From the NCBI GenBank assembly GCA_964406005.1, contig CAYOPZ010000015.1, forward strand, positions 1,170 through 65,169: a stretch of DNA of 64,000 nt, written 5' to 3'. Of the stretch, positions 40,127 through 52,012 are shown piece after piece. Every line of letters begins with the position of its first letter. Within the stretch, counting starts at the first letter, position 1. The notes under the pieces are model-generated. The model was not told the DNA's origin. It saw only the letters and a program-made list of their open reading frames with translations, and did no database searches. This stretch comes from an uncultured Bacteroidaceae bacterium. Lineage in GTDB: Bacteria > Bacteroidota > Bacteroidia > Bacteroidales > SM23-62. Made by a program: the position numbers and the translations under genes.

Positions 40127-41977
40127 ATGGCAAAAAAGGCGAAAGTAATAGAGCTCGAGGATGTGGTGGTGAAGTTTGCAGGAGATTCGGGTGATGGTAT
40201 GCAATTAACAGGGTCCCAGTTCTCAGACACCTCGGCATTCGTCGGCAACGACCTTTCCACGTTCCCGGATTACCCTGCGGAGATCAGGGCGCCGGGAGGG
40301 ACGATTGCGGGCATTTCGGGCTTCCAGGTACACATAGGTCATAAAGAGGTCCATTCCCCGGGAGACCAGGCGGATGTACTGGTGGCAATGAATCCGGCTG
40401 CCCTGAAAGCCAACATGAAATGGATCAAGCCCGGCGCTACCATCATCATTGATATTGATAATTTTGATAACAAGCATTATAAAAAGGCCGGATATATTGA
40501 AGATCCCCTGTGGGACGGCAGTCTCGAGGGATTCAATGTGGTAAGGGCCCCCATAACGCAACTGACAAGATCGACCGTTAAGGAATTCGGACTGGATAAC
40601 CGTACTGCCGATAAGACGAAGAACCAGTTCGTTGCGGGACTCCTGTTCTGGATGTTTAACAGGGATATCACCATTGGCGAGGAATTCCTGAAAAACAAAT
40701 TCAGGAAAAAGCCTGAACTGGTGCAGGCCAATATCAGGGTACTTCGTGAGGGCTATAATTACGCGGAGACCATCGAGGCGATGGCGACCACCTTTCTTGT
40801 GAACCCGGCCAGGAAAAAGAAAGGCCTGTTCCGGAACATAACAGGAAACCAGGCCACTGCATGGGGCTGCATGGCAGCATCCGAGCGTTCGGGACGCCCG
40901 CTTTTCCTCGGATCCTATCCCATCACCCCGGCATCCGAGATCCTGCAGGAACTGGCAGGCAGGAAACATCTCGGGGTCAAGACTTTTCAGGCTGAAGACG
41001 AGATTGCAGGTATTTGTTCAGCCATTGGGGCGAGCTTCGCAGGCCACCTGGGCGTAACGTCGACCTCCGGTCCCGGGCTCGCACTCAAAGGCGAAGCAAT
41101 AGGCCTGGCCGTCATGACGGAACTTCCGCTGGTAGTTATCAACGTTCAGCGGGGAGGTCCTTCCACAGGGCTTCCGACAAAGACCGAACAATCCGACCTG
41201 ATGCAGGCCCTGTATGGCAGGAGCGGGGAAAGTCCCGTTGTGGTTCTTGCAGCAAGCACACCGGCAAATTGCTTTGATTATGCATATATCGCTTCCAAGA
41301 TCGCCATCGAACATATGACGCCCGTGATCCTGATGACCGACGGTTACCTGGCCAATGGTTCCGAACTCTGGCACATCCCGGATGTCAACGAATTACCCCC
41401 CATCAATGTGCCCTCGGTAAAAGACAATGATGAGAATTATCAACCCTACCTGAGACGTATGGAAAACCTGGCCCGCTACTGGGCCGTTCCCGGCCAGGAA
41501 GGACTGAGGCACAAGGTAGGTGGTCTGGAGAAGGCGGACGTTACGGGAGACGTTTCGCAAGACCCTTTGAATCACCAGGTCATGGTGGAGCTGAGGGATG
41601 CGAAAGTGAAGAAAGTGGAGGAGGTGATCCCCGATCAGGAAATCGTGGGAGAGGATTCAGGCGACCTGCTTGTGATCGGCTGGGGAGGGACCTACGGCCC
41701 GCTGCTTACAGCCGTTGAGGAACTTCAGCAGGAGGGGAAACGCCTCAGCCTTGCACAGTTCAATTACATTCACCCACTGCCCCGGAATACCCGTGAAGTA
41801 TTGAAAGGATTTAAAAAGAGGATCGTCTGTGAGCTGAACCTGGGACAGTTTGCCGATTATCTCACAATGAAGTACCCGGAGTACGCGTATTTAAGGTTCA
41901 ACAAGGTGCAGGGCCTGCCCTTTATGATCTCGGAACTGAAAAATAAATTCAACAACATACTGGAGGAGAAGTCATGA
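40127..41977 (+). CDS. korA: 2-oxoacid:ferredoxin oxidoreductase alpha subunit
   Basis: AGDSGDG, YPITPAS, QAEDE, TSGPG, QRGGPSTGLPT; substrate not proven; TAATTTTG at 39990-39997. Confidence 0.88.
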   Translation: MAKKAKVIELEDVVVKFAGDSGDGMQLTGSQFSDTSAFVGNDLSTFPDYPAEIRAPGGTIAGISGFQVHIGHKEVHSPGDQADVLVAMNPAALKANMKWIKPGATIIIDIDNFDNKHYKKAGYIEDPLWDGSLEGFNVVRAPITQLTRSTVKEFGLDNRTADKTKNQFVAGLLFWMFNRDITIGEEFLKNKFRKKPELVQANIRVLREGYNYAETIEAMATTFLVNPARKKKGLFRNITGNQATAWGCMAASERSGRPLFLGSYPITPASEILQELAGRKHLGVKTFQAEDEIAGICSAIGASFAGHLGVTSTSGPGLALKGEAIGLAVMTELPLVVINVQRGGPSTGLPTKTEQSDLMQALYGRSGESPVVVLAASTPANCFDYAYIASKIAIEHMTPVILMTDGYLANGSELWHIPDVNELPPINVPSVKDNDENYQPYLRRMENLARYWAVPGQEGLRHKVGGLEKADVTGDVSQDPLNHQVMVELRDAKVKKVEEVIPDQEIVGEDSGDLLVIGWGGTYGPLLTAVEELQQEGKRLSLAQFNYIHPLPRNTREVLKGFKKRIVCELNLGQFADYLTMKYPEYAYLRFNKVQGLPFMISELKNKFNNILEEKS

Positions 41978-42996
41978 GTCTGAAAGAAATGTCTGAACTG
42001 ACAAGAGATGATTTCAAGGTTGACAATCCCATCAAATGGTGTGCAGGTTGCGGAGGCCATTCCGTTCTGGCGACCGTTCAGAATGTACTGCCCGAAACAG
42101 GTATCAAAAAGGAAAATGTTGTTTTCGTGTCGGGCATAGGTTGTTCCTCCAGGTTTCCCTATTACATCAACACGTACGGAATGCACAGTATGCACGGCAG
42201 GGCGGCGGCGATCGCATCGGGCATCAAGGTGGCGAATCCCAGTCTGAGCGTATGGGTTGTGACGGGAGACGGGGATCTGATGGCCATTGGCGGCAATCAT
42301 TTCATACATGTCATACGCAGGAATATCAATCTGAACATCCTCCTGTTCAATAACAAGATCTACGGATTGACAAAGGGGCAGTACTCGCCGACGACGCCCA
42401 AGGGATCGGTAACAAAAACATCTCCGGACGGAACGATAGAGATTCCCTTTAAACCCGGAGAGCTGGCCATGGGGGCACAGGGCACTTTTTTTGCCAGGAC
42501 GGTGGATACAGAACCCCGGATGATGAAGGAAGTCTTGCTGGAAGCTGCAAAACACAGAGGGACTTCGCTGGTCGAGATCCTTCAGAACTGTATTATTTTC
42601 GCCAACCAGGTGCATAAGGAGATCACAGGAAAGGATGTCCGGGAGGACAATCAGATCTATCTGAAGCACGGAGAACCGATGATTTACGGAAAGGAGAGGA
42701 ACAGGGGACTGGTCATGGAAAAGGGGAGACTGAAACCGGTCGTAATCGGCGAGAACGGATATACGCTCGAAGATATACTGGTACATGATGTGAAGGATCC
42801 AGATGATACCATACATTACATGCTGACCCGGATGACACTTCCCGATTTCCCTGTGGCCATGGGCGTTATCCGTTCCTGTGAGAGCACCGTCTACGAAAGC
42901 ATGCTTGAAGCACAGGTGAACAGGGCCCGGGAAGAAACCCGCATATCGAACATGAATGAACTGCTGCGGTCCGGGAATACCTTCAAGGTTGAATGA
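41974..42996 (+). CDS. korB: 2-oxoacid:ferredoxin oxidoreductase beta subunit
   Basis: WCAGCG, SGIGCSS, HGR, GDGD..GGNH, YGLTKGQ. Confidence 0.88.
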   Translation: MSLKEMSELTRDDFKVDNPIKWCAGCGGHSVLATVQNVLPETGIKKENVVFVSGIGCSSRFPYYINTYGMHSMHGRAAAIASGIKVANPSLSVWVVTGDGDLMAIGGNHFIHVIRRNINLNILLFNNKIYGLTKGQYSPTTPKGSVTKTSPDGTIEIPFKPGELAMGAQGTFFARTVDTEPRMMKEVLLEAAKHRGTSLVEILQNCIIFANQVHKEITGKDVREDNQIYLKHGEPMIYGKERNRGLVMEKGRLKPVVIGENGYTLEDILVHDVKDPDDTIHYMLTRMTLPDFPVAMGVIRSCESTVYESMLEAQVNRAREETRISNMNELLRSGNTFKVE

Positions 42997-43009: not shown

Positions 43010-45985
43010 ATGGACAGCACCCGGGAAAATATCACCGTACCTGCACTTGATTTCAGTCCCACGGCATTCAACAGGTTAATGCAGAAAAGGATCCGCCAGG
43101 TACTCCTGATCTGCAGCAATTATGACTATTTCATGCTGGAAGAGGACGGGAGGATTGATGAACAGATCTTTAATGAATATGTTTCACTGAACCTGCGGTA
43201 TCCCCCTGTATTCATGCGTGTATCTACCGCAAGGGAAGCATTTGCATTTCTTGAACGCAAGCAGGTCGACCTGGTAATACAGATGCTCAATATAGAAGAT
43301 ATTGACACATTTGAACTTGCCAGGCAGATCAAGGAAAAAAATCCCGGGATTCCCATCGTTACACTGACCCATTTTTCAAGGGAAGTCTCAATGAGGCTGC
43401 AGGACGAGGATCTGAGTGCCATTGATTATGTATTTTGCTGGCTGGGGAATGCAGACCTTCTTCTGGCCATCGTAAAGCTGATAGAGGATAAAATGAATGC
43501 GGAGCACGATGTGGAAGAAATAGGCGTACAGACCATTCTGATGGTGGAGGATTCCATCCGCTATATATCAAGCTATCTTCCCAGCCTGTACAAAATTATT
43601 TACAAGCAATCCAGGGAATTCAGCGTGGAAGCGGTGAATGAGCACCAGCGGATGCTCAGGATGCGCGGAAGGCCGAAGGTTTTACTTGCGACGAATTACG
43701 ATGATGCAGTGAAAATCTACCAGAAATACAAGCATAACATGCTGGGCATCATTTCAGATGTCAACTTCAAAAAGAATCCCGGAGCAAAGGTCAAGGGGAA
43801 GTACGGTATAGATTTCTGCAAGCTGGTGAAAGCGGAAGACAGATTCATGCCTTTCCTTCTCCAGTCATCGAATGCAGGCATCATTGAGGAGGCAAACAAG
43901 CTGGGTATAGGATTCCTCTACAAGTTTTCCAAAAACCTTACCAATGAGTTGAATGAATACATTGTCGGTCACTTTGCCTTCGGGGATTTTATCTTCCGCA
44001 ATCCCGATACCCAGAAGGAAGTGTCAAGGGCCGCCGACCTGCAGGCATTCCAAAGTGAAATCCTGAAAATACCGGATGATGTCCTGGCATTTCACACCAG
44101 CCGTAATGATTTTTCAAAATGGCTGAATGCCAGGGCGATATTCCCCATCGCACAAATATTCAAGCGTCTTACAATAGACGACTTCAAAAATCTGGACAGC
44201 GTGCGCCAATATATCCATGAATCCATATCAAATTACAGGATCAGTAAAAACCGGGGGATCATTGCCAAGTTTGAAAAGGAAAAATTCGATGAGTATAAAT
44301 TGTTCAGCAGGATCGGTGAAGGATCTATCGGGGGTAAGGCAAGGGGGCTGGCATTTATCAATTCCATGATAGAATCACACCGCATATTCAATAAATATCC
44401 GAATATCGTCATTACAATTCCCCGTACGGTTGTTCTTGGTACAGATGTTTTCGATCAGTTCATGGAAGACAACAAGCTTTATTCTGTCGCACTTTCTGAT
44501 GCGAGCGATGAAAAAATACTGAACCGCTTCGTGGGAGCTGATCTGCCCGCCTGGATAGAACAGGACATCCGCACCCTTCTTGAGGTGATCGTGAATCCGA
44601 TTGCGGTGCGCAGTTCAAGTAAGCTCGAAGACTCCCATTACCAGCCTTTTGCAGGTATTTATTCTACGTATATGGTGCCCTGTAACAAAAAAGACAGGGA
44701 AGACACGATGCGTATGCTTCTGATTGCCATAAAAAGTGTTTATGCATCGGTATATTTCAAAAGCAGCAAGGCCTATATGGCGGCTACATCCAATGTGATC
44801 GACGAGGAAAAGATGGGCATCATCCTGCAGGAAGTCTGCGGAACCGAATACCGGGGCAGGTTTTATCCGGCCATTTCAGGTGTTGCAAGGTCGATCAACT
44901 TCTATCCGATCGAACCGGAAAAACCCGAAGACGGGATTTCAGTGATCGCTTACGGCCTGGGTAAGTTTCTCATGGAAGGCGGAACGGGGCTCCGTTTCTC
45001 GCCAAAATACCCCAGAAAGGTACTCCAGCTTTCTTCCCCGGAAACGATTCTGGGGAGTACCCAGAAAGCATTTTACGCAATTGATATGAACCCGTCGAGC
45101 TTTGTGCCCTCGGTGGATGACGGGATGAACCTGTTTAAGCTTAAATTCGATGAGGCGGAAAAAGACGCTTCGTTCCGTTTTGCCGCATCCACATATGATC
45201 TGCAGAACCGGATGATCCGTGAAGGGATAACGGGTCAGGGCAAGAGGGTGGCGACCTTTTCACAGGTGCTGAACTACAATGCCTTTCCCCTGTCAGAGAT
45301 CATTTCCGAACTCCTGCATCTCAGCCGGAAGGAGATGAGCAATCACATCGAGATGGAATTTGCCGTGAACCTTCCCGAAGGTCGTCCCGCTGTTTTTAAT
45401 TATCTGCAGATCAGACCGATCGTATTGAATGAGCAGAGCATCAGTTTCAACCTGAATGATGTGAAGCAGGAGGATGCCATCGTGTATTCCGAATCTGCGC
45501 TTGGAAACGGATCGTTTACGGGATTGAGAGACATCATCTATATCAGGCCGGCGTCTTACAAGCCGTCAAAAAGCAAGGAGATCGCAGGGATGGTTGAGAA
45601 GATCAACAATGAATTCATCAGGGGGAACGGCAACTATATCCTGATCGGTCCCGGCAGATGGGGATCCACGGATCCGTGGCTGGGGATCCCTGCAAAATGG
45701 CCGCAGCTATCAGCGGCGCGGGTAATTGTGGAAGCGGGTCAGGAAAACTACCGCATTGATCCGAGCCAGGGCACCCATTTTTTCCAGAATATAACCTCTT
45801 TCGGTGTGGGGTATTTCACTATAAACCCCCATGTTCAGGACGGATGCTATGACCTGCCATTCCTTGACCGGCAACCCGCCTGTTTCGAGAACGAATTCAT
45901 AAGGCATGTTCGTTTTGAGGAGGATTTGAGGGTCCGGGTGGACGGAAGATCGAACAGGGGGGTAATCTACAAACCGGGATCATAA
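43010..45985 (+). CDS. Receiver-domain + PEP synthase/PPDK-type ATP-grasp protein of unknown function
   Basis: Two REC-like domains, IGGKARGL, AVRSSSKLED, FAGIY, MGIILQ, MEFA; no pyruvate-binding barrel; start moved to ATG 43010. Confidence 0.75.
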   Translation: MDSTRENITVPALDFSPTAFNRLMQKRIRQVLLICSNYDYFMLEEDGRIDEQIFNEYVSLNLRYPPVFMRVSTAREAFAFLERKQVDLVIQMLNIEDIDTFELARQIKEKNPGIPIVTLTHFSREVSMRLQDEDLSAIDYVFCWLGNADLLLAIVKLIEDKMNAEHDVEEIGVQTILMVEDSIRYISSYLPSLYKIIYKQSREFSVEAVNEHQRMLRMRGRPKVLLATNYDDAVKIYQKYKHNMLGIISDVNFKKNPGAKVKGKYGIDFCKLVKAEDRFMPFLLQSSNAGIIEEANKLGIGFLYKFSKNLTNELNEYIVGHFAFGDFIFRNPDTQKEVSRAADLQAFQSEILKIPDDVLAFHTSRNDFSKWLNARAIFPIAQIFKRLTIDDFKNLDSVRQYIHESISNYRISKNRGIIAKFEKEKFDEYKLFSRIGEGSIGGKARGLAFINSMIESHRIFNKYPNIVITIPRTVVLGTDVFDQFMEDNKLYSVALSDASDEKILNRFVGADLPAWIEQDIRTLLEVIVNPIAVRSSSKLEDSHYQPFAGIYSTYMVPCNKKDREDTMRMLLIAIKSVYASVYFKSSKAYMAATSNVIDEEKMGIILQEVCGTEYRGRFYPAISGVARSINFYPIEPEKPEDGISVIAYGLGKFLMEGGTGLRFSPKYPRKVLQLSSPETILGSTQKAFYAIDMNPSSFVPSVDDGMNLFKLKFDEAEKDASFRFAASTYDLQNRMIREGITGQGKRVATFSQVLNYNAFPLSEIISELLHLSRKEMSNHIEMEFAVNLPEGRPAVFNYLQIRPIVLNEQSISFNLNDVKQEDAIVYSESALGNGSFTGLRDIIYIRPASYKPSKSKEIAGMVEKINNEFIRGNGNYILIGPGRWGSTDPWLGIPAKWPQLSAARVIVEAGQENYRIDPSQGTHFFQNITSFGVGYFTINPHVQDGCYDLPFLDRQPACFENEFIRHVRFEEDLRVRVDGRSNRGVIYKPGS

Positions 45986-46007: not shown

Positions 46008-47345
46008 ATGAATACAGACATAATAATGGCCGACCTTGAGAAGAAACACCCCGGTGAGGCCGAATATCACCAGGCAGTCAGGGAAGTCCTGGAATCCATA
46101 GAGGAGATCTATAACCGGAATCCCCAGTTTGAAGCAGCAGGGATCATAGAACGGATCATCGAACCAGATCGCATTTTGATTTTCAAGGTACCATGGGAAG
46201 ATGACCAGGGGAAAGTACATGTAAACCTGGGTTACCGCATTCAGTTCAATTCTGCCATCGGGCCCTATAAAGGGGGCCTGCGTTTTCATCCGAGCGTTAA
46301 CCTAAGTATCCTGAAATTCCTGGGGTTTGAACAGGTCTTCAAGAACAGCCTGACAACCCTGCCCCTTGGAGGAGGGAAAGGCGGATCCGATTTTAATCCG
46401 AAAGGGAAATCCGGCACCGAAATCATGCGCTTCTGCCAGGCTTTCATGCTCGAATTATGGAAAATGATCGGACCTTCGACGGACATTCCGGCAGGTGATA
46501 TCGGTGTGGGCACCCGTGAGATCGGATACCTTTACGGGATGTACCGGAAACTGGCAAGGGAAAACACAGGGGTCCTCACGGGAAAGGGGATTGACTGGGG
46601 GGGCAGCCTCATCCGGCCCGAAGCCACAGGTTTCGGGGTCGTATATTTTACCAAGGAAATGCTGGCCACCAGGGATGAGACCTTCAAAGGGAAAACAGTG
46701 GCCGTAAGCGGCTTTGGGAATGTGGCATGGGGGGCGGTCCAGAAAGTGGTCGAACTGGGAGGGAAAGTCGTGACCCTCTCCGGTCCGGACGGATATGTTT
46801 TTGACAGGGAAGGTGTATCGGGGGGAAAGATAGCCTATATGCTGGAACTCAGGGCCTCCAATGAAGACATCGTCAGGCCCTATGCAGATGAGTTCGAGGG
46901 TGTGGAATTCATCCCTGAAAAACATCCCTGGGAAGTGAAATGCGATATTGCATTGCCCTGTGCGACCGAGAATGAATTGAACGGGCAGGATGCCCTGCAA
47001 CTTGTGAAAAACGGCTGTATCTGTGTTTGTGAGGGGGCAAATATGCCCTGTACGCCTGAAGCCATCGGGATCCTGCAGGAGAACAGAATCCTGTTCGCCC
47101 CCGGGAAAGCTGCCAATGCGGGAGGGGTGGCGACCTCCGGGCTGGAAATGTCACAAAACAGTATGAAGCTGAACTGGCTCAGGCAGGAGGTGGACAGCAG
47201 GTTGCATGATATCATGACCAGCATACACGGTACCTGCTTGGAACATGGCACGGAGAAGGACGGGTATATCGATTATGTCAAAGGGGCGAATATATCCGGG
47301 TTCATGAAGGTGGCCAATGCCATCCTCGATCAGGGCGTGATATGA
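46008..47345 (+). CDS. gdhA: Glutamate dehydrogenase (cofactor specificity not established)
   Basis: GPYKGGLRFH, GGGKGG, PAGDIG, RPEATG, GFGNV, GKAANAGGV. Confidence 0.92.
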   Translation: MNTDIIMADLEKKHPGEAEYHQAVREVLESIEEIYNRNPQFEAAGIIERIIEPDRILIFKVPWEDDQGKVHVNLGYRIQFNSAIGPYKGGLRFHPSVNLSILKFLGFEQVFKNSLTTLPLGGGKGGSDFNPKGKSGTEIMRFCQAFMLELWKMIGPSTDIPAGDIGVGTREIGYLYGMYRKLARENTGVLTGKGIDWGGSLIRPEATGFGVVYFTKEMLATRDETFKGKTVAVSGFGNVAWGAVQKVVELGGKVVTLSGPDGYVFDREGVSGGKIAYMLELRASNEDIVRPYADEFEGVEFIPEKHPWEVKCDIALPCATENELNGQDALQLVKNGCICVCEGANMPCTPEAIGILQENRILFAPGKAANAGGVATSGLEMSQNSMKLNWLRQEVDSRLHDIMTSIHGTCLEHGTEKDGYIDYVKGANISGFMKVANAILDQGVI

Positions 47346-48644
47346 TCAGGTCACCGAATGCAGGTATTCTTTCAGCTGTTTAAAATCATTGGACAGGGGG
47401 ATGCTTTCCTTCTCCTTTCCTGTAACTTCCCTGAGACGTTCCGGCAGTTCCACGACGCTGCCGGTTTCCTCTTCTATAATTTCCCTGAATTTGGCGGGAT
47501 GAGCAGTTTCCATGAATATGCCGGGAAGGCTTGCCTGTCCGGCCGCAAATGCCTTCAGTGCATTGTATCCGGCGGCACCGTGTGGATCAAGCAGGTATCC
47601 GCTCGATGCATATACCCTTTTTATCGCGGCCCTCAGTTCGTTGTCTCTGTAGGAATATGCCGCCATATCCTCCAGGATGGCGCTGTGTGAGTGCCTGTAA
47701 AGGTCCAGAATGCGTGCAAAGTTGCTGGGATTGCCCACATCCATGGCGTTGGCGATGGTAGGCAGGGAAGGTCGCGGGCGGAACCTGCCGGTCTGCAGGT
47801 ACTCGGGCACGACATCATTGATGTTGGTTGCAATGATGAATTTCTTAACCGGGAGTCCCATCCTTCCCGCAATCAGTCCGGCTGTCAGATTACCGAAGTT
47901 CCCGCTGGGCACGCACATATAGAAAGCATTTTTTTCAGGAAGCTGGGCATACGCATGAAAATAATAGAAAGACTGCGGAAGCAGCCTTGCCAGGTTAATG
48001 GAATTGGCCGAGGTGAGTATGCGGCCCGTGGAAAGCACCGGGTCCGTAAAGGCTTTTTTTACAAGACGCTGGCAATCGTCGAAATTCCCGGAAATCTCAA
48101 GTGCGACGATATTCCCACCGAGGGTTGTAAGCTGTTTCTCCTGTAATTCGCTCACGCCGCCGGATGGATAGAGGATGAATACCCGGATTCCCTCCACGTT
48201 CCGGAACCCGTTTGCCACGGCGCTTCCGGTATCGCCGGAAGTGGCAACAAGCACATTGATCTCTCGGTTGAGCCCGGCAATAAAATATCCCAGCATTCTC
48301 GCCATAAAGCGTGCTCCCACATCCTTAAAGGCAAGTGTGGGGCCATGAAACAATTCCAGGGAGAAGACCTGCTCCTCCACTTTCACAAGGGGTGTGTCAA
48401 AACAGATGGCATCTTCCGTAATCCGGGCAAGTGCCTCTTCCGGAACGTCTTCATGGAACAGGGATAAGGCCACTTCATAAGAGATTTCCCTGAAAGATCT
48501 TCCCCTGAAAGCATCTATGCGGTCCCGGGCGAACCTGGGTATGACGGAAGGCATGTACAGGCCGCCATCCGGGGCAAGTCCTCCGAGAACTGCCTCACGC
48601 AGGTTCTTTCTGATACGGGGGTCTCCGGTACTGTAATAATCCAT
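47346..48644 (-). CDS. thrC: Threonine synthase
   Basis: GLAPDGGLY, FHGPTLAFKD, ATSGDTG, PSGNFGN, TAHPAKF; start moved to ATG 48644. Confidence 0.95.
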   Translation of the reverse strand: MDYYSTGDPRIRKNLREAVLGGLAPDGGLYMPSVIPRFARDRIDAFRGRSFREISYEVALSLFHEDVPEEALARITEDAICFDTPLVKVEEQVFSLELFHGPTLAFKDVGARFMARMLGYFIAGLNREINVLVATSGDTGSAVANGFRNVEGIRVFILYPSGGVSELQEKQLTTLGGNIVALEISGNFDDCQRLVKKAFTDPVLSTGRILTSANSINLARLLPQSFYYFHAYAQLPEKNAFYMCVPSGNFGNLTAGLIAGRMGLPVKKFIIATNINDVVPEYLQTGRFRPRPSLPTIANAMDVGNPSNFARILDLYRHSHSAILEDMAAYSYRDNELRAAIKRVYASSGYLLDPHGAAGYNALKAFAAGQASLPGIFMETAHPAKFREIIEEETGSVVELPERLREVTGKEKESIPLSNDFKQLKEYLHSVT

Positions 48645-48649
48645 GAATC

Positions 48650-49582
48650 TTAACTTTTTGACAACAGGCGGATCCCGTCGGGATTCACCCCGGAGACATA
48701 ACATTTGCAGTCAATTCCGGCTTTGTTGAAGATCTTCAGCATTGCAGAGGAAACTTCCCGGGCGGTTTCTTCCGTGTCGCTCAGGGCAAAAATCGAAGGA
48801 CCGGACCCGGAAATGCTGCAGCCAAGCGCACCGGCGGCAAGCACCGCTTTCTTGACCTTTTCATATTCCGGGATCAGGAAAGCACGGATGGGTTCGGCGA
48901 TCACATCGTGCATGGAGTCCCTGATCAGGCGGAAATCTCCCGTAATCAATCCGGTTACCAGCCCGGCAATATTCCCGCATTGTGTCACGGCAGTTTTCAG
49001 GGGAACGGTGGTTTTCAGGATCTTCCTGCTGTCTTCGGTGGCAATCGGGATATCCGGATGTACAACGCTGCAGAATATATTCGCGGGTCCCGGAATATCG
49101 ATGATGTCAAGAGGGTCATAACTTCTTACAAGGACAAAACCTCCGAGCAGGGCAGGGGCCACGTTGTCCGCATGCGCCGAGCCACTGGAAGCTTCTTCTC
49201 CCTTCATTGCAAATGGTATCAGATCCAGGCTGCGGTAAGGGCTCTCCAGGAGAAGATTCGCCCCGTAAACGGCTCCCGCCGAACTGGCTGCACTGGAACC
49301 GATCCCGCTGCCCGGGGGAATCTTTTTCAGGAATGTCAGCCGGAATTTCTGCCTGCTTCCCATGTCTTTAAGCATCGCGTCGATGGCGATTGTGGCGACA
49401 TTCTTCTGTGGTTCGATCGGAATATGTGCCCCGGACCTGTTAATGATAACATGATCCTTCCCGTCGGATTTTTCCATCAGGAATTCATCCCCGGGATCGT
49501 TCACAGCGAATCCCAGGATGTCAAATCCCGGACCCACATTGGCTACGGTGGCAGGAGAGAATATGTGAATTGCACCGGCCAT
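48650..49582 (-). CDS. thrB: Homoserine kinase
   Basis: PATVANVGPGFD, GIGSSAAS, HADNVAP, SGSGPS. Confidence 0.93.
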   Translation of the reverse strand: MAGAIHIFSPATVANVGPGFDILGFAVNDPGDEFLMEKSDGKDHVIINRSGAHIPIEPQKNVATIAIDAMLKDMGSRQKFRLTFLKKIPPGSGIGSSAASSAGAVYGANLLLESPYRSLDLIPFAMKGEEASSGSAHADNVAPALLGGFVLVRSYDPLDIIDIPGPANIFCSVVHPDIPIATEDSRKILKTTVPLKTAVTQCGNIAGLVTGLITGDFRLIRDSMHDVIAEPIRAFLIPEYEKVKKAVLAAGALGCSISGSGPSIFALSDTEETAREVSSAMLKIFNKAGIDCKCYVSGVNPDGIRLLSKS

Positions 49583-49585
49583 TTA

Positions 49586-52012
49586 TCAGATATTCGCAAT
49601 GCGTATAACGTCTGCAAAAATACCCGCTGCCGTAACTTCGGCCCCGGCTCCGTAACCTTTGATGATCATGGGCAATTCCCTGTAACGTTCGGTCGTGATC
49701 ATTATGATATTATTGCTGCCTTCAAGTGGATACAGGGGATGGTCATGGCCGACCTCCCGCAGCATGACAGCTGCCTTCCCGTCTTTCAGCTGTGCAACGA
49801 AACGCCACTTTTTTTGTTCTTTCTCCAGTTTTTTCCTCCTTTTTTCAAATTCATCATCGTATTTCCGGATGGTCTTCCAGAATCCATCCAGGGACCCTTT
49901 GAAACATTCTTCGGGCAGGATGGGAGAAACGGATACATCCTTTTCATCTATCCTGTAGCCTGCCTCCCTGGAAAGGATGATGAGTTTGCGTATCACATCG
50001 ATTCCGCTCAGGTCTATCCGGGGATCGGGTTCGGAATATCCCATCTCTTTTGCCTTCCGAATGACCTTGCTCAGCCTGTTGTCCGCATCAAGGGTGTTGA
50101 AAATAAAATTGAGCGTACCTGACAGGACCGCTTCCAGTTCCAGTATCCTGTCTCCCGAATTGATCAGGTCATTCATCGTATTGATGACCGGCAGTCCCGC
50201 CCCGACATTGGTCTCGAAGATGAATCTCACTCCTTTTGCACGGGCCGTGTTTTTAAGGTCCCTGTAATGGTTGTAATCCGAGGAGCAGGCAATCTTGTTT
50301 GCAGTCACGACCGAGACATAATTGTTGAAAAGTTTCCGGTAGGCTTCTGCCACCTTTTCAGATGCCGTGCAGTCGATGAATACGCTGTTGCGGAGGTTAA
50401 GCTCGGAGATCCGGTCTGTAAACGCATCCAGATCGGCGGGAAGTCCCTCGCTGATCAATTCCTTGTAATTCCTGATGTCGATCCCCTCCGGATCAATGAT
50501 CATTTTCCTTGAGTTGGAGAGTCCGATCAGGTTCACCTTCAGCCGATGGTCCATCAAGAGTTTTTCTTTCTGGTTCAGGATCTGTGCCAGCAGCTTTGAC
50601 CCTACCGTTCCCGAGCCTGCCAGGAACAGGTGCAACTCCCTGTAATGCGAAAGGAAAAATCCCTCGTGAATTACATTCAGGGCTTTGCGGAGGCTGTGAT
50701 TGCTGATCACCACCGAAATGTTCAATTCTGAGGATCCCTGTGCGATTGCAATGACATTGATCCCGTTTCTGCCGAGGCTCTGGAACAGTTTCGCCGAAAT
50801 GCCGGGCGTATGCCTCATCCGTTCACCCACGATGGCAATGACCGAAAGATCCTTTTCTATCAGGATGCGTATGGAATGAAGCGTCTTAATCTCGTGGAGA
50901 AATTCCTCCCTGATGGCCTGCTCCGCCGCACCGGTCATATCCGGCTGTATGGCAAAGCTGATCGAGTATTCTGAAGATGCCTGCGTGATAAGAATGACAT
51001 TGATGTTGTGTTTCGCCAGGGCGGTGAACAAGCGGGAGGATGTGCCCGTTACGCCCACCATGCCCGAACCCTGCAGGGTTATCAGGTCAACCAGGTCGAT
51101 CGAGGAAATACCTTTGATGGGAGACTGGTTCTGGGCGATCCCGTTTTGTCCTATCACCGTGCCTTTTTTCTCAGGTGAAAAGGTGTTTTTGATATGAATG
51201 CGTATTCTTTTCTCAAGCACGGGTTGAATTGTAGGCGTATACAACACTTTCGCCCCGAAATGTGACAATTCCATGGCTTCCGCATAACTGAGGGATTCGA
51301 TGGCATAAGCTTTATTTACCTTCCTGGGATCGGCCGTCATAAAGCCGTCAACATCGGTCCATATCTCGAGGACGCTTGCATCCGTTGCCGCGGCAATGAT
51401 GGCCGCCGTGTAATCCGATCCGCCCCGCCCGAGTGTCGTGGTTTCATCCCTTTTGTTGCTGGCAATAAATCCCGGGACCACTGCAAATTTCTGCAGTGTC
51501 CGGAAATGCTTTTCAATCAGGGGATTTGTTTTGTCGAATAATATCCCGGCCTTTCCGAAATTGCTGTCTGTCTTTAAAAGCTCCCTGATCTCAACCAGGT
51601 ACGCATCACTGATCTTGAGTGATATGACAAATGATGAAAGGCGCTCGCCGAAGCTCAGGATGGAATCAAGGGTTTTTGCAGTCAGATCCTGGAGAAGATA
51701 GACCCCGTGAAGGGTCTCCTCAAGTTCGTTGATCAATACCTTGATACCGGCCAGGATGTTGCTCTGCTGGTTCACCCTGAACAGCTCCTTCACCGTGTCG
51801 TAGTGACGCTGCTCGATTTCTTTCAGCATTGACCTGTATGTCTCATCCCGGTCTTTTGCCAGCCGGCTGACCCTGATCAGCTGGTCCGTCACTCCCTGGA
51901 AAGCCGAAACCACAATGATGCATGCTTCTTTTTGGCTCTCAACAATGGATTTTACACCCATGATACGTTCGGGTGAGCCCAACGAGGAACCGCCGAATTT
52001 CAGGACCTTCAT
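49586..52012 (-). CDS. thrA: Bifunctional aspartate kinase/homoserine dehydrogenase
   Basis: KFGGSS, TLGRGGSD, two ACT domains, GSGTVG, ETNVGAGLP, EPDPRIDLSG; TACTTTTG at 52062-52069. Confidence 0.95.
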   Translation of the reverse strand: MKVLKFGGSSLGSPERIMGVKSIVESQKEACIIVVSAFQGVTDQLIRVSRLAKDRDETYRSMLKEIEQRHYDTVKELFRVNQQSNILAGIKVLINELEETLHGVYLLQDLTAKTLDSILSFGERLSSFVISLKISDAYLVEIRELLKTDSNFGKAGILFDKTNPLIEKHFRTLQKFAVVPGFIASNKRDETTTLGRGGSDYTAAIIAAATDASVLEIWTDVDGFMTADPRKVNKAYAIESLSYAEAMELSHFGAKVLYTPTIQPVLEKRIRIHIKNTFSPEKKGTVIGQNGIAQNQSPIKGISSIDLVDLITLQGSGMVGVTGTSSRLFTALAKHNINVILITQASSEYSISFAIQPDMTGAAEQAIREEFLHEIKTLHSIRILIEKDLSVIAIVGERMRHTPGISAKLFQSLGRNGINVIAIAQGSSELNISVVISNHSLRKALNVIHEGFFLSHYRELHLFLAGSGTVGSKLLAQILNQKEKLLMDHRLKVNLIGLSNSRKMIIDPEGIDIRNYKELISEGLPADLDAFTDRISELNLRNSVFIDCTASEKVAEAYRKLFNNYVSVVTANKIACSSDYNHYRDLKNTARAKGVRFIFETNVGAGLPVINTMNDLINSGDRILELEAVLSGTLNFIFNTLDADNRLSKVIRKAKEMGYSEPDPRIDLSGIDVIRKLIILSREAGYRIDEKDVSVSPILPEECFKGSLDGFWKTIRKYDDEFEKRRKKLEKEQKKWRFVAQLKDGKAAVMLREVGHDHPLYPLEGSNNIIMITTERYRELPMIIKGYGAGAEVTAAGIFADVIRIANI

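Follow-up and report, generated by a model that had tools for sequence, protein, structure and literature searches.

A widespread receiver-bearing protein with a dikinase-type core and a predicted swivelling histidine domain, encoded beside glutamate dehydrogenase in Bacteroidales

Between the genes for a 2-oxoacid:ferredoxin oxidoreductase (korAB) and a glutamate dehydrogenase (GDH, gene gdh), a 64,000-nucleotide stretch of DNA from an uncultured Bacteroidaceae bacterium (GenBank assembly GCA_964406005.1, contig CAYOPZ010000015.1, positions 1,170 to 65,169 of the forward strand; hereafter the window) carries an open reading frame (ORF) at 43010-45985 on the + strand, the 991-residue product of which joins two receiver (REC) domains to a nucleotide-binding core of the dikinase type. 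The question raised by this locus is what such a protein, here called X, does at the 2-oxoglutarate/glutamate node. Bacteroidales dominate gut and sediment communities, and their post-translational balancing of 2-oxoglutarate and glutamate is poorly known. X belongs to a widespread, unstudied and regulator-like family that is kin to kinases built on a dikinase core, and the reading that we prefer, and would back and doubt in equal measure, is that X is a receiver-gated histidine autokinase resembling mycobacterial VadK that acts post-translationally at this node, probably on GDH. Were this true, X would supply the switch of carbon-nitrogen balance that is missing for gut Bacteroides and other anaerobes. 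A fusion of REC and dikinase domains had already been named in a census and VadK was already known as a regulatory dikinase core; new here are a two-domain structural superposition and the link to the published korAB cofitness of BT1972 from Bacteroides thetaiotaomicron.

Domain composition of X

The boundaries of the gene, the codons of Asp250 and His923, the distances to the flanking genes and the motifs quoted in a first-pass annotation made from the letters of this DNA were all found where it had placed them. The features of the gene are as follows.

43010..45985, + strand: gene X, encoding a REC-REC-linker-ATP-grasp-His-domain protein (Pfam and AlphaFold2 model, mean pLDDT 89)
43082..43522, + strand: REC1, pseudo-receiver, ~aa 25-171; phospho-Asp absent; conserved Y38, D39, W144, G146, E159, D160
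43523..43984, + strand: REC2, canonical receiver, ~aa 172-325; E180, D181, D250, S286, K305
43757..43759 (GAT), + strand: Asp250, predicted REC2 phospho-acceptor; Asp in 133/143 relatives
43985..44293, + strand: helical linker domain, ~aa 326-428; weak likeness to DUF5752
44294..45424, + strand: ATP-grasp of the phosphoenolpyruvate (PEP) synthase/rifampin phosphotransferase (RPH) type, ~aa 429-805; K443, R534, T553, E783, Q800, R802
45452..45982, + strand: C-terminal domain, aa 815-991; swivelling phospho-His fold predicted; motifs GPGRWG and S-x-G-[ST]-H-F-F specific to the family
45776..45778 (CAT), + strand: His923, predicted phospho-carrier; His in 141/143 relatives

Pfam recognizes in X a Response_reg domain at residues 68-143 and PPDK_N at 439-812, the ATP-grasp matching PF01326 with an E-value of 3e-32. 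Conservation was assessed in an alignment (A1) of 143 sequences at 31-76% identity, which comprises the window protein, 115 of 150 family representatives and 27 close matches, with partial and much longer representatives left out, and to which all counts out of 143 refer. K443, R534, E540, D541 and Q800 are invariant in all 143, bearing out the ATP-grasp of pyruvate phosphate dikinase (PPDK) or PEP synthase kind that the first-pass annotation had recognized. In the ATP site the motifs align with their counterparts in the PPDK of the same genome, K443 lying in a GGKG-type and R534 in a VRSG-type motif, and correspond to Lys22, Arg117 and Thr136 as described for RPH (PMC4844700). By structure this domain resembles RPH and PEP synthase (Z 26) more closely than PPDK (Z 18).

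The barrel on which PEP synthase and PPDK bind PEP or pyruvate was said to be missing, and it is: Pfam gives no match to the PEP-utilizers or the barrel family (PF02896) anywhere in X, and because the chain terminates 68 residues past His923 there is no room for a barrel. Nor does a separate substrate domain lie between the ATP-grasp, which ends near residue 805, and the His domain, which begins near 815. That X might nonetheless be an ordinary PEP synthase, perhaps with a barrel borrowed in trans, is suggested by database names that include 'phosphoenolpyruvate synthase' and by the type of its ATP-grasp, but we regard it as highly improbable, as had been argued before. Curated whole-protein cut-offs are missed (22.8 against 739.75 bits for TIGR01418 and 20.8 against 598 bits for PRK06464), the genome's sole PF02896 match lies, together with its sole PF00391 match, in a separate complete PPDK of 908 residues on another contig (C22), and B. 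thetaiotaomicron too has a separate PPDK, BT0644. Labelling X as PEP synthase, a common annotation, burdens metabolic models with a reaction that is probably false. A role in the phosphotransferase system was also considered and is unlikely, as this genome, which is 98.6% complete, yields neither an HPr match nor a second barrel.

The C-terminal domain had been assigned by eye to the swivelling phospho-His domains. Conservation of His923, on which that assignment hinged, extends to all 111 C-terminal domains taken from loci, distant subfamilies at 25% identity included, and R883, W884, E908, S919 and N927 near it are at least 90% conserved. AlphaFold2 predicts the isolated domain (residues 815-991) with a pLDDT of 91. 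When this model was compared with 48,161 chains by a tool that flags Z 8 as its safe level, the best match was the His domain of RPH (5hv1 757-867; Z 7.2, root-mean-square deviation 3.0, 106 residues aligned), followed by the PPDK carrier domain 2fm4 (Z 6.8), a DRTGG domain (6.7) and the pyruvate kinase C-terminal domain 2e28 (6.6), with maize PPDK 387-513 (6.4) and enzyme I 2wqd (5.8) further down; five of the top six are swivel domains of the phospho-His type, and Foldseek places the same set near the top. The two-domain comparison goes further. Residues 420-990 of the model superimpose in one alignment on residues 4-467 of PEP synthase 2ols (Z 25.8, root-mean-square deviation 4.5, 361 aligned), with Z 26.0 against RPH bound to AMPPNP (5hv3) and 18.4 against PPDK 1dik 7-510; the predicted C-terminal domain therefore occupies the place of the swivel domain against the nucleotide domain. 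His923 opens a helix (923-930), with the same His-to-Gly spacing as in the PPDK motif. The by-eye assignment thus gains from predicted structure, both in isolation and in the superposition, but not from sequence profiles, which are blank on it, and we conclude from the models that the domain is probably a diverged, enlarged swivel His domain. In the ESM Atlas the only matches were unnamed clusters or the X family itself. P0216 and P0252, the sole His-less members of the 143, have also lost the surrounding motif residues and are possibly inactive regulatory copies.

At the other end of the chain the two receivers have diverged, in the way the first-pass annotation described. REC1 has an Asp at positions 91-93 in only 2/143 relatives, Met92 being present in 90, while its six listed residues are near-invariant and the REC1-REC2 region keeps R221, P222 and K223; these could possibly mark a ligand or dimer site. 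In REC2, E180 is kept in 138, D181 in 129, S286 in 135 and K305 in 139 of the 143, the complete site is found in 125 of them and in 164 of 172 locus copies, and model residues 172-327 match receiver structures with Z 13-15. The tandem receivers match PleD in Foldseek. The linker that follows resembles PF19027 with an E-value of 0.059 in X and down to 1e-5 in one relative. Pfam finds neither a HisKA nor a HATPase_c domain in X, though NCBI names some relatives 'histidine kinase'.

An intact REC2 site and His923 occur together in 123/143 relatives, the chain holds no other acceptor domain, and histidine-kinase-like ORFs turned up in just 2 of 156 loci in a rough scan for motifs. All this would suit a self-contained phosphorelay without HATPase, in which phosphate passes from the ATP-grasp to His923 and on to Asp250 of the protein's own REC2, and the phosphorylated receiver pair binds a target. 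The model, however, places the His domain on the ATP-grasp and not demonstrably on REC2, orphan receivers are common generally, and receiverless subfamilies, of ~585 and 770-1060 residues and with no Response_reg match, keep the His and frequently the gdh link. Since they do so, phosphorylation of REC2 by the same chain is not the core job of the whole family, and since they keep the core as well, the conserved output belongs to the core, the receivers being likely an input added in most lineages. As an account of what X does, the internal relay is unlikely in our estimate, and we place it after the KorAB target considered below.

Gene context and genetics in Bacteroides

The genes that flank X in the window are the following.

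40127..41977, + strand: korA-type 2-oxoacid:ferredoxin oxidoreductase alpha subunit (TIGR03710, over cut-off)
41974..42996, + strand: korB-type beta subunit (TIGR02177, just under cut-off)
46008..47345, + strand: glutamate dehydrogenase, PRK14030 type; its coenzyme site bears the fingerprint of the NAD-specific C. symbiosum enzyme

X is separated from korB by 13 and from gdh by 22 nucleotides, and scans for promoters and terminators at the locus gave chance level only. The label 'Kor', that is, 2-oxoglutarate specificity of the alpha/beta pair, is inferred. The C. symbiosum enzyme is also the best PDB match of the window GDH, which is the sole PF02812 match in a genome that encodes a glutamate synthase large subunit as well.

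Linkage to gdh recurs far beyond this genome. Related genomes are not independent in any of the context counts, which therefore show recurrence and carry no p-value. In a sample across the phylum, gdh lies within 5 kb of 26/32 full-length copies of X, in 24 of 29 genomes, where rough chance is 0.8% per copy; this count uses 65 of 84 PF02812 rows, 18 weaker ones (E >1e-35) and one X-less genome having been dropped, and merges two frameshifted copies. The same distance holds for 5/6 receiverless and 6/10 distant copies, and for 34 of the 46 Bacteroides genomes searched. Among metagenome loci, picked with a divergent alignment, gdh stands beside X in 35/78 and in 22 of the 39 with long flanks, at GC contents of 28-70% and with the genes tandem, divergent or convergent. 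Linked copies turn up all across a tree built from 185 cores, and neither this tree nor a comparison of GDH types supports a pairing of X with one specific GDH clade. No other recurring partner gene is consistent in 156 loci; korB is near X in 11/78 GTDB loci and 6/78 metagenome loci, mostly in relatives sharing wider synteny. At L122:4302-13418 and L123:2062-14924 there are alternating gdh-X-gdh-X-gdh arrays with GDHs of different types, and beside gdh-X an electron-transfer subunit occurs in 6/78 and glutamate-synthase-small-subunit-like genes (TIGR01316) in 4/78 metagenome loci (L213:8205-9101, L211:1192-2676). At G180:C1:222769-226218 and G305:C1:993879-997343, korA lies within ~1.3 kb of a same-strand gdh with no space for X between them, so that korAB-gdh clustering also arises without X.

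Genetic data bearing on X come from random-barcode transposon sequencing (RB-TnSeq) in B. thetaiotaomicron, where BT1972, annotated as PEP synthase/PPDK, lies between BT1970 (GDH) and BT1973 (NAD-specific GDH) (PMC8121099). We infer from gene order that BT1972 is the counterpart of X, because a Bacteroides locus runs NAD-type gdh, X, catalase, NADP-type gdh and BT1971 is a catalase, and because BT0644 is the genuine PPDK and only one X is present per Bacteroides genome searched. Table S3 of that study gives BT1972 exactly two partners at a cofitness of at least 0.8, korB (0.824) and korA (0.817), and korAB and BT1970 in turn show cofitness with genes of amino-acid synthesis (PMC8121099), in line with the reported synthesis of 2-oxoglutarate via succinate in this organism (PMC11304471). 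Loss of X thus appears to impair the supply of the glutamate family in the same conditions as loss of KorAB.

This raises the possibility that the same His-autokinase chemistry is directed at KorAB, which would be activated for reductive 2-oxoglutarate synthesis, gdh proximity then reflecting shared regulation of the pathway. The top two cofit genes of BT1972 and the route from succinate both favour such a target, as do the position of korB immediately upstream in the window and at the loci counted above, and the presence of KorA in 26/26 phylum-sample genomes with full-length X. The korAB link is, however, mostly limited to Bacteroidales relatives sharing a wider synteny block, KorA is also found in 81/121 X-less genomes of the phylum sample and in 22/23 X-less genomes of the order, and two genomes with only the distant form of X have no KorA match. 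We consider KorAB an unlikely direct target, yet the foremost of the rivals to GDH.

An older observation points back to GDH. Trans-acting gene(s) downstream of B. thetaiotaomicron gdhA affect GDH activity, according to the title of a 1996 paper (Baggio and Morrison). In the Bacteroides locus with matching gene order, the NADP-type gdh is followed downstream by catalase and then X, and X is one of two candidates for the factor. The activity reportedly mapped to a segment of ~3 kb, and the GDH of B. fragilis is said to be reversibly inactivated by ammonium. With a defined His and Asp, BT1972 offers a concrete candidate for this trans-acting control in a genetically tractable commensal. The counterpart in B. 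fragilis P207, PTOS_003162, is reported to be expressed and not essential, its fitness in rich medium being close to neutral; these data neither favour nor refute a regulatory model.

Proposed action and relation to known systems

We propose that X is a dikinase core that bears receivers, lacks a substrate domain and likely uses ATP to phosphorylate its own His923. By the chemistry of PPDK, RPH and VadK, His923 would attack the beta-phosphate of ATP and release AMP and inorganic phosphate. Because the chain has the two dikinase catalytic domains and no acceptor domain, the phospho-His would have to act outside the core; its state, which the receivers are predicted to gate, would likely control GDH, a target suggested by gene context, through binding or phosphotransfer, such that net flux would favour glutamate supply. 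In this genome the effect would likelier be restraint of a catabolic GDH, because the only GDH present is NAD-type and a glutamate synthase large subunit accompanies it; elsewhere the alternative would be activation of an NADP-type GDH where one is present. REC2 is the likely input and might receive phosphate from a distant kinase, a small phospho-donor or His923 itself, and REC1 is likely an allosteric or dimerising pseudo-receiver. His-autokinase chemistry, transfer from His923 to Asp250 and direct action on GDH or Kor are all proposals, and the readings with GDH, KorAB or the protein's own receiver as recipient are not mutually exclusive.

Several observations weigh against X being a receiver-gated autokinase directed at GDH. 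As to the fold, every match of the isolated domain stays under Z 8, the Foldseek E-values are 7e-3 or worse, PF00391 has no match in the 111 C-terminal domains or at this locus in the genome search, no Pfam family rises above chance in the same 111 domains, hhalign of the C-terminal domain against 30 swivel domains (mostly PPDK) gives a probability of 0.1, and the PDB profile search of this domain was blank. As to the target, gdh adjacency, on which the first-pass annotation leant, recurs across the phylum but is found within 6 kb in only 22/78 GTDB Bacteroidota loci, many of which have short flanks. Beside X stand GDHs of the NAD type, the NADP type and family II, with ~30% identity to the window enzyme, and three such divergent neighbours are awkward for one protein-surface target. 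PF02812 is matched in 22 of the order's 23 genomes that lack X, and KorA likewise in 22; GDH and KorAB thus occur without X, which is therefore accessory to both, and a role as obligate subunit or maturation factor of either was ruled out for the same reason. In the fitness data BT1972 is cofit best with korAB, neither BT1970 nor BT1973 is listed as a partner at 0.8 or above, the korAB pattern is near that of generic amino-acid auxotrophs, and cofitness is a correlation (PMC8121099).

The three GDH types would be easier to reconcile with a metabolite common to them than with a common protein surface, and thus with a small-molecule dikinase of the RPH, PigC or HpeHI kind acting on a metabolite at the 2-oxoglutarate/glutamate node, its acceptor site lying in the enlarged His domain with its GPGRWG insert, in the linker domain or in a partner protein. 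The closest structures are RPH, HpeI and PEP synthase, and the conserved residues around His923 are active-site-like. Against this, the characterized small-molecule dikinases described in one RPH study all have a separate substrate domain (PMC4844700), none is recognizable in X, and no partner gene other than gdh is consistent across the 156 loci. We hold this improbable and place it after the internal relay.

Of the known systems VadK (Rv1127c) is the one that X would work most like. VadK is described as a PPDK derivative lacking the barrel that autophosphorylates His422 and co-precipitates methylcitrate-cycle enzymes, and is reported in Actinomycetota only, beside prpCD (PMC13400623). Both proteins combine an ATP-binding and a phospho-His domain without a pyruvate barrel, and both are linked to the metabolic enzymes that each is proposed to tune post-translationally. 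In contrast to VadK, X has two receivers, a linker and a diverged, enlarged His domain, and its context is GDH and KorAB rather than the methylcitrate cycle. Its ATP-grasp is structurally nearer PEP synthase and RPH than PPDK, which suggests that X may have originated separately from the PPDK truncation that gave rise to VadK.

RPH (5hv1, 5hv3, 5fbs) provides the best structural match, with Z 26.5 for the ATP-grasp and 7.2 for the isolated His domain. X shares with it and with PigC, RedH and HpeI a C-terminal His domain and frequent mislabelling as PEP synthase, but RPH has a large substrate domain between ATP-grasp and His domain where X has a join of ~10 residues, and X adds N-terminal receivers. 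The ATP-grasp is followed directly by the His domain in PpsA (2ols) and PPDK (1dik, 1kbl), as in X, with the same predicted arrangement and ATP-site motifs, whereas X has no PEP/pyruvate barrel, carries S-x-G-[ST]-H-F-F in place of GG-x-TSH-AA as its His motif, and scores below the curated cut-offs. PleD likewise carries tandem receivers; there the first is the phosphorylated one, while in X it is the second that has the predicted phospho-Asp. X therefore stands outside PEP synthase and PPDK (no barrel), the RPH-like enzymes (no substrate domain) and the classical histidine kinases.

Overall the observations of the first-pass annotation are confirmed and its interpretation, a non-canonical phosphorelay or protein kinase, is partly supported. 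The case against PEP synthase, the predicted fold with its conserved His, the gdh link and the cofitness of BT1972 with korAB speak for it, but with VadK as precedent it is less unprecedented than was implied. A bolder form of the proposal would have a one-chain signalling system of an as yet undescribed kind pass the beta-phosphate to the swivel His and on to its own receiver Asp and/or GDH, making X the long-sought post-translational GDH switch of Bacteroides, the 1996 trans-acting factor included, and a protein kinase and phosphorelay that dispenses with HATPase and phosphotransferase-system parts and is spread across most Bacteroidales and several other anaerobic lineages; this we hold to be doubtful, though a serious possibility. 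If transfer from His to Asp or from His to GDH proved true, the finding made with VadK would reach beyond its mycobacterial special case and apply to a large class of signal-gated regulators derived from dikinases.

Spread of the family and further features

Every one of 7,998 scored candidates reached significance, and among representatives taken at 50% identity 1,149 have E-values of 1e-30 or below. The family is present in 178/201 genomes of the order, in all 46 Bacteroides genomes searched and in 30/151 of the phylum-wide sample, and named members outside Bacteroidales include Ignavibacteriales and Caldisericia. Database names vary from PEP synthase and PEP/pyruvate-binding protein to response regulator, CheY-like and histidine kinase. 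The census that names the fusion of REC and dikinase lists it for Heimdallarchaeota, the entry giving no function, His domain or gdh link (PMC5847659). The supplement of PMC5552732 contains no matching rows, and no functional study of the family was found in the full-text literature, most subscription papers being outside that scope.

Several members depart from the common architecture. A distant member of 1063 residues (L114:5375-8566) is paired with a receiverless one of 584 residues and a family II GDH, and has a nucleotidyltransferase-like domain at its C-terminus (PF01909 over cut-off, E 1.9e-5), an ending that we take to resemble the nitrogen-regulatory nucleotidyltransferases. P0257, of 1523 residues, has two PPDK_N stretches and is an apparent fusion of the short and long paired forms. 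In close relatives of the window's genome a second paralogue of ~1150 residues lies directly upstream of X (L036:2432-5995, L038:2432-5998, L045:2394-5948, L047:2400-5954), with REC2 and the His intact and an extra N-terminal module of ~170 residues; the window has the short paralogue only. A relative of that module is encoded in the window's genome at G000:C5:14712-15167 (E down to 3e-19), ~1.7 kb from a receiver-domain ORF. On the far side of gdh in the window, three ORFs on the minus strand (47346-52012) resemble by eye threonine synthase, homoserine kinase and aspartokinase/homoserine dehydrogenase, and this trio converges on gdh such that the stop codons abut at 47345/47346.

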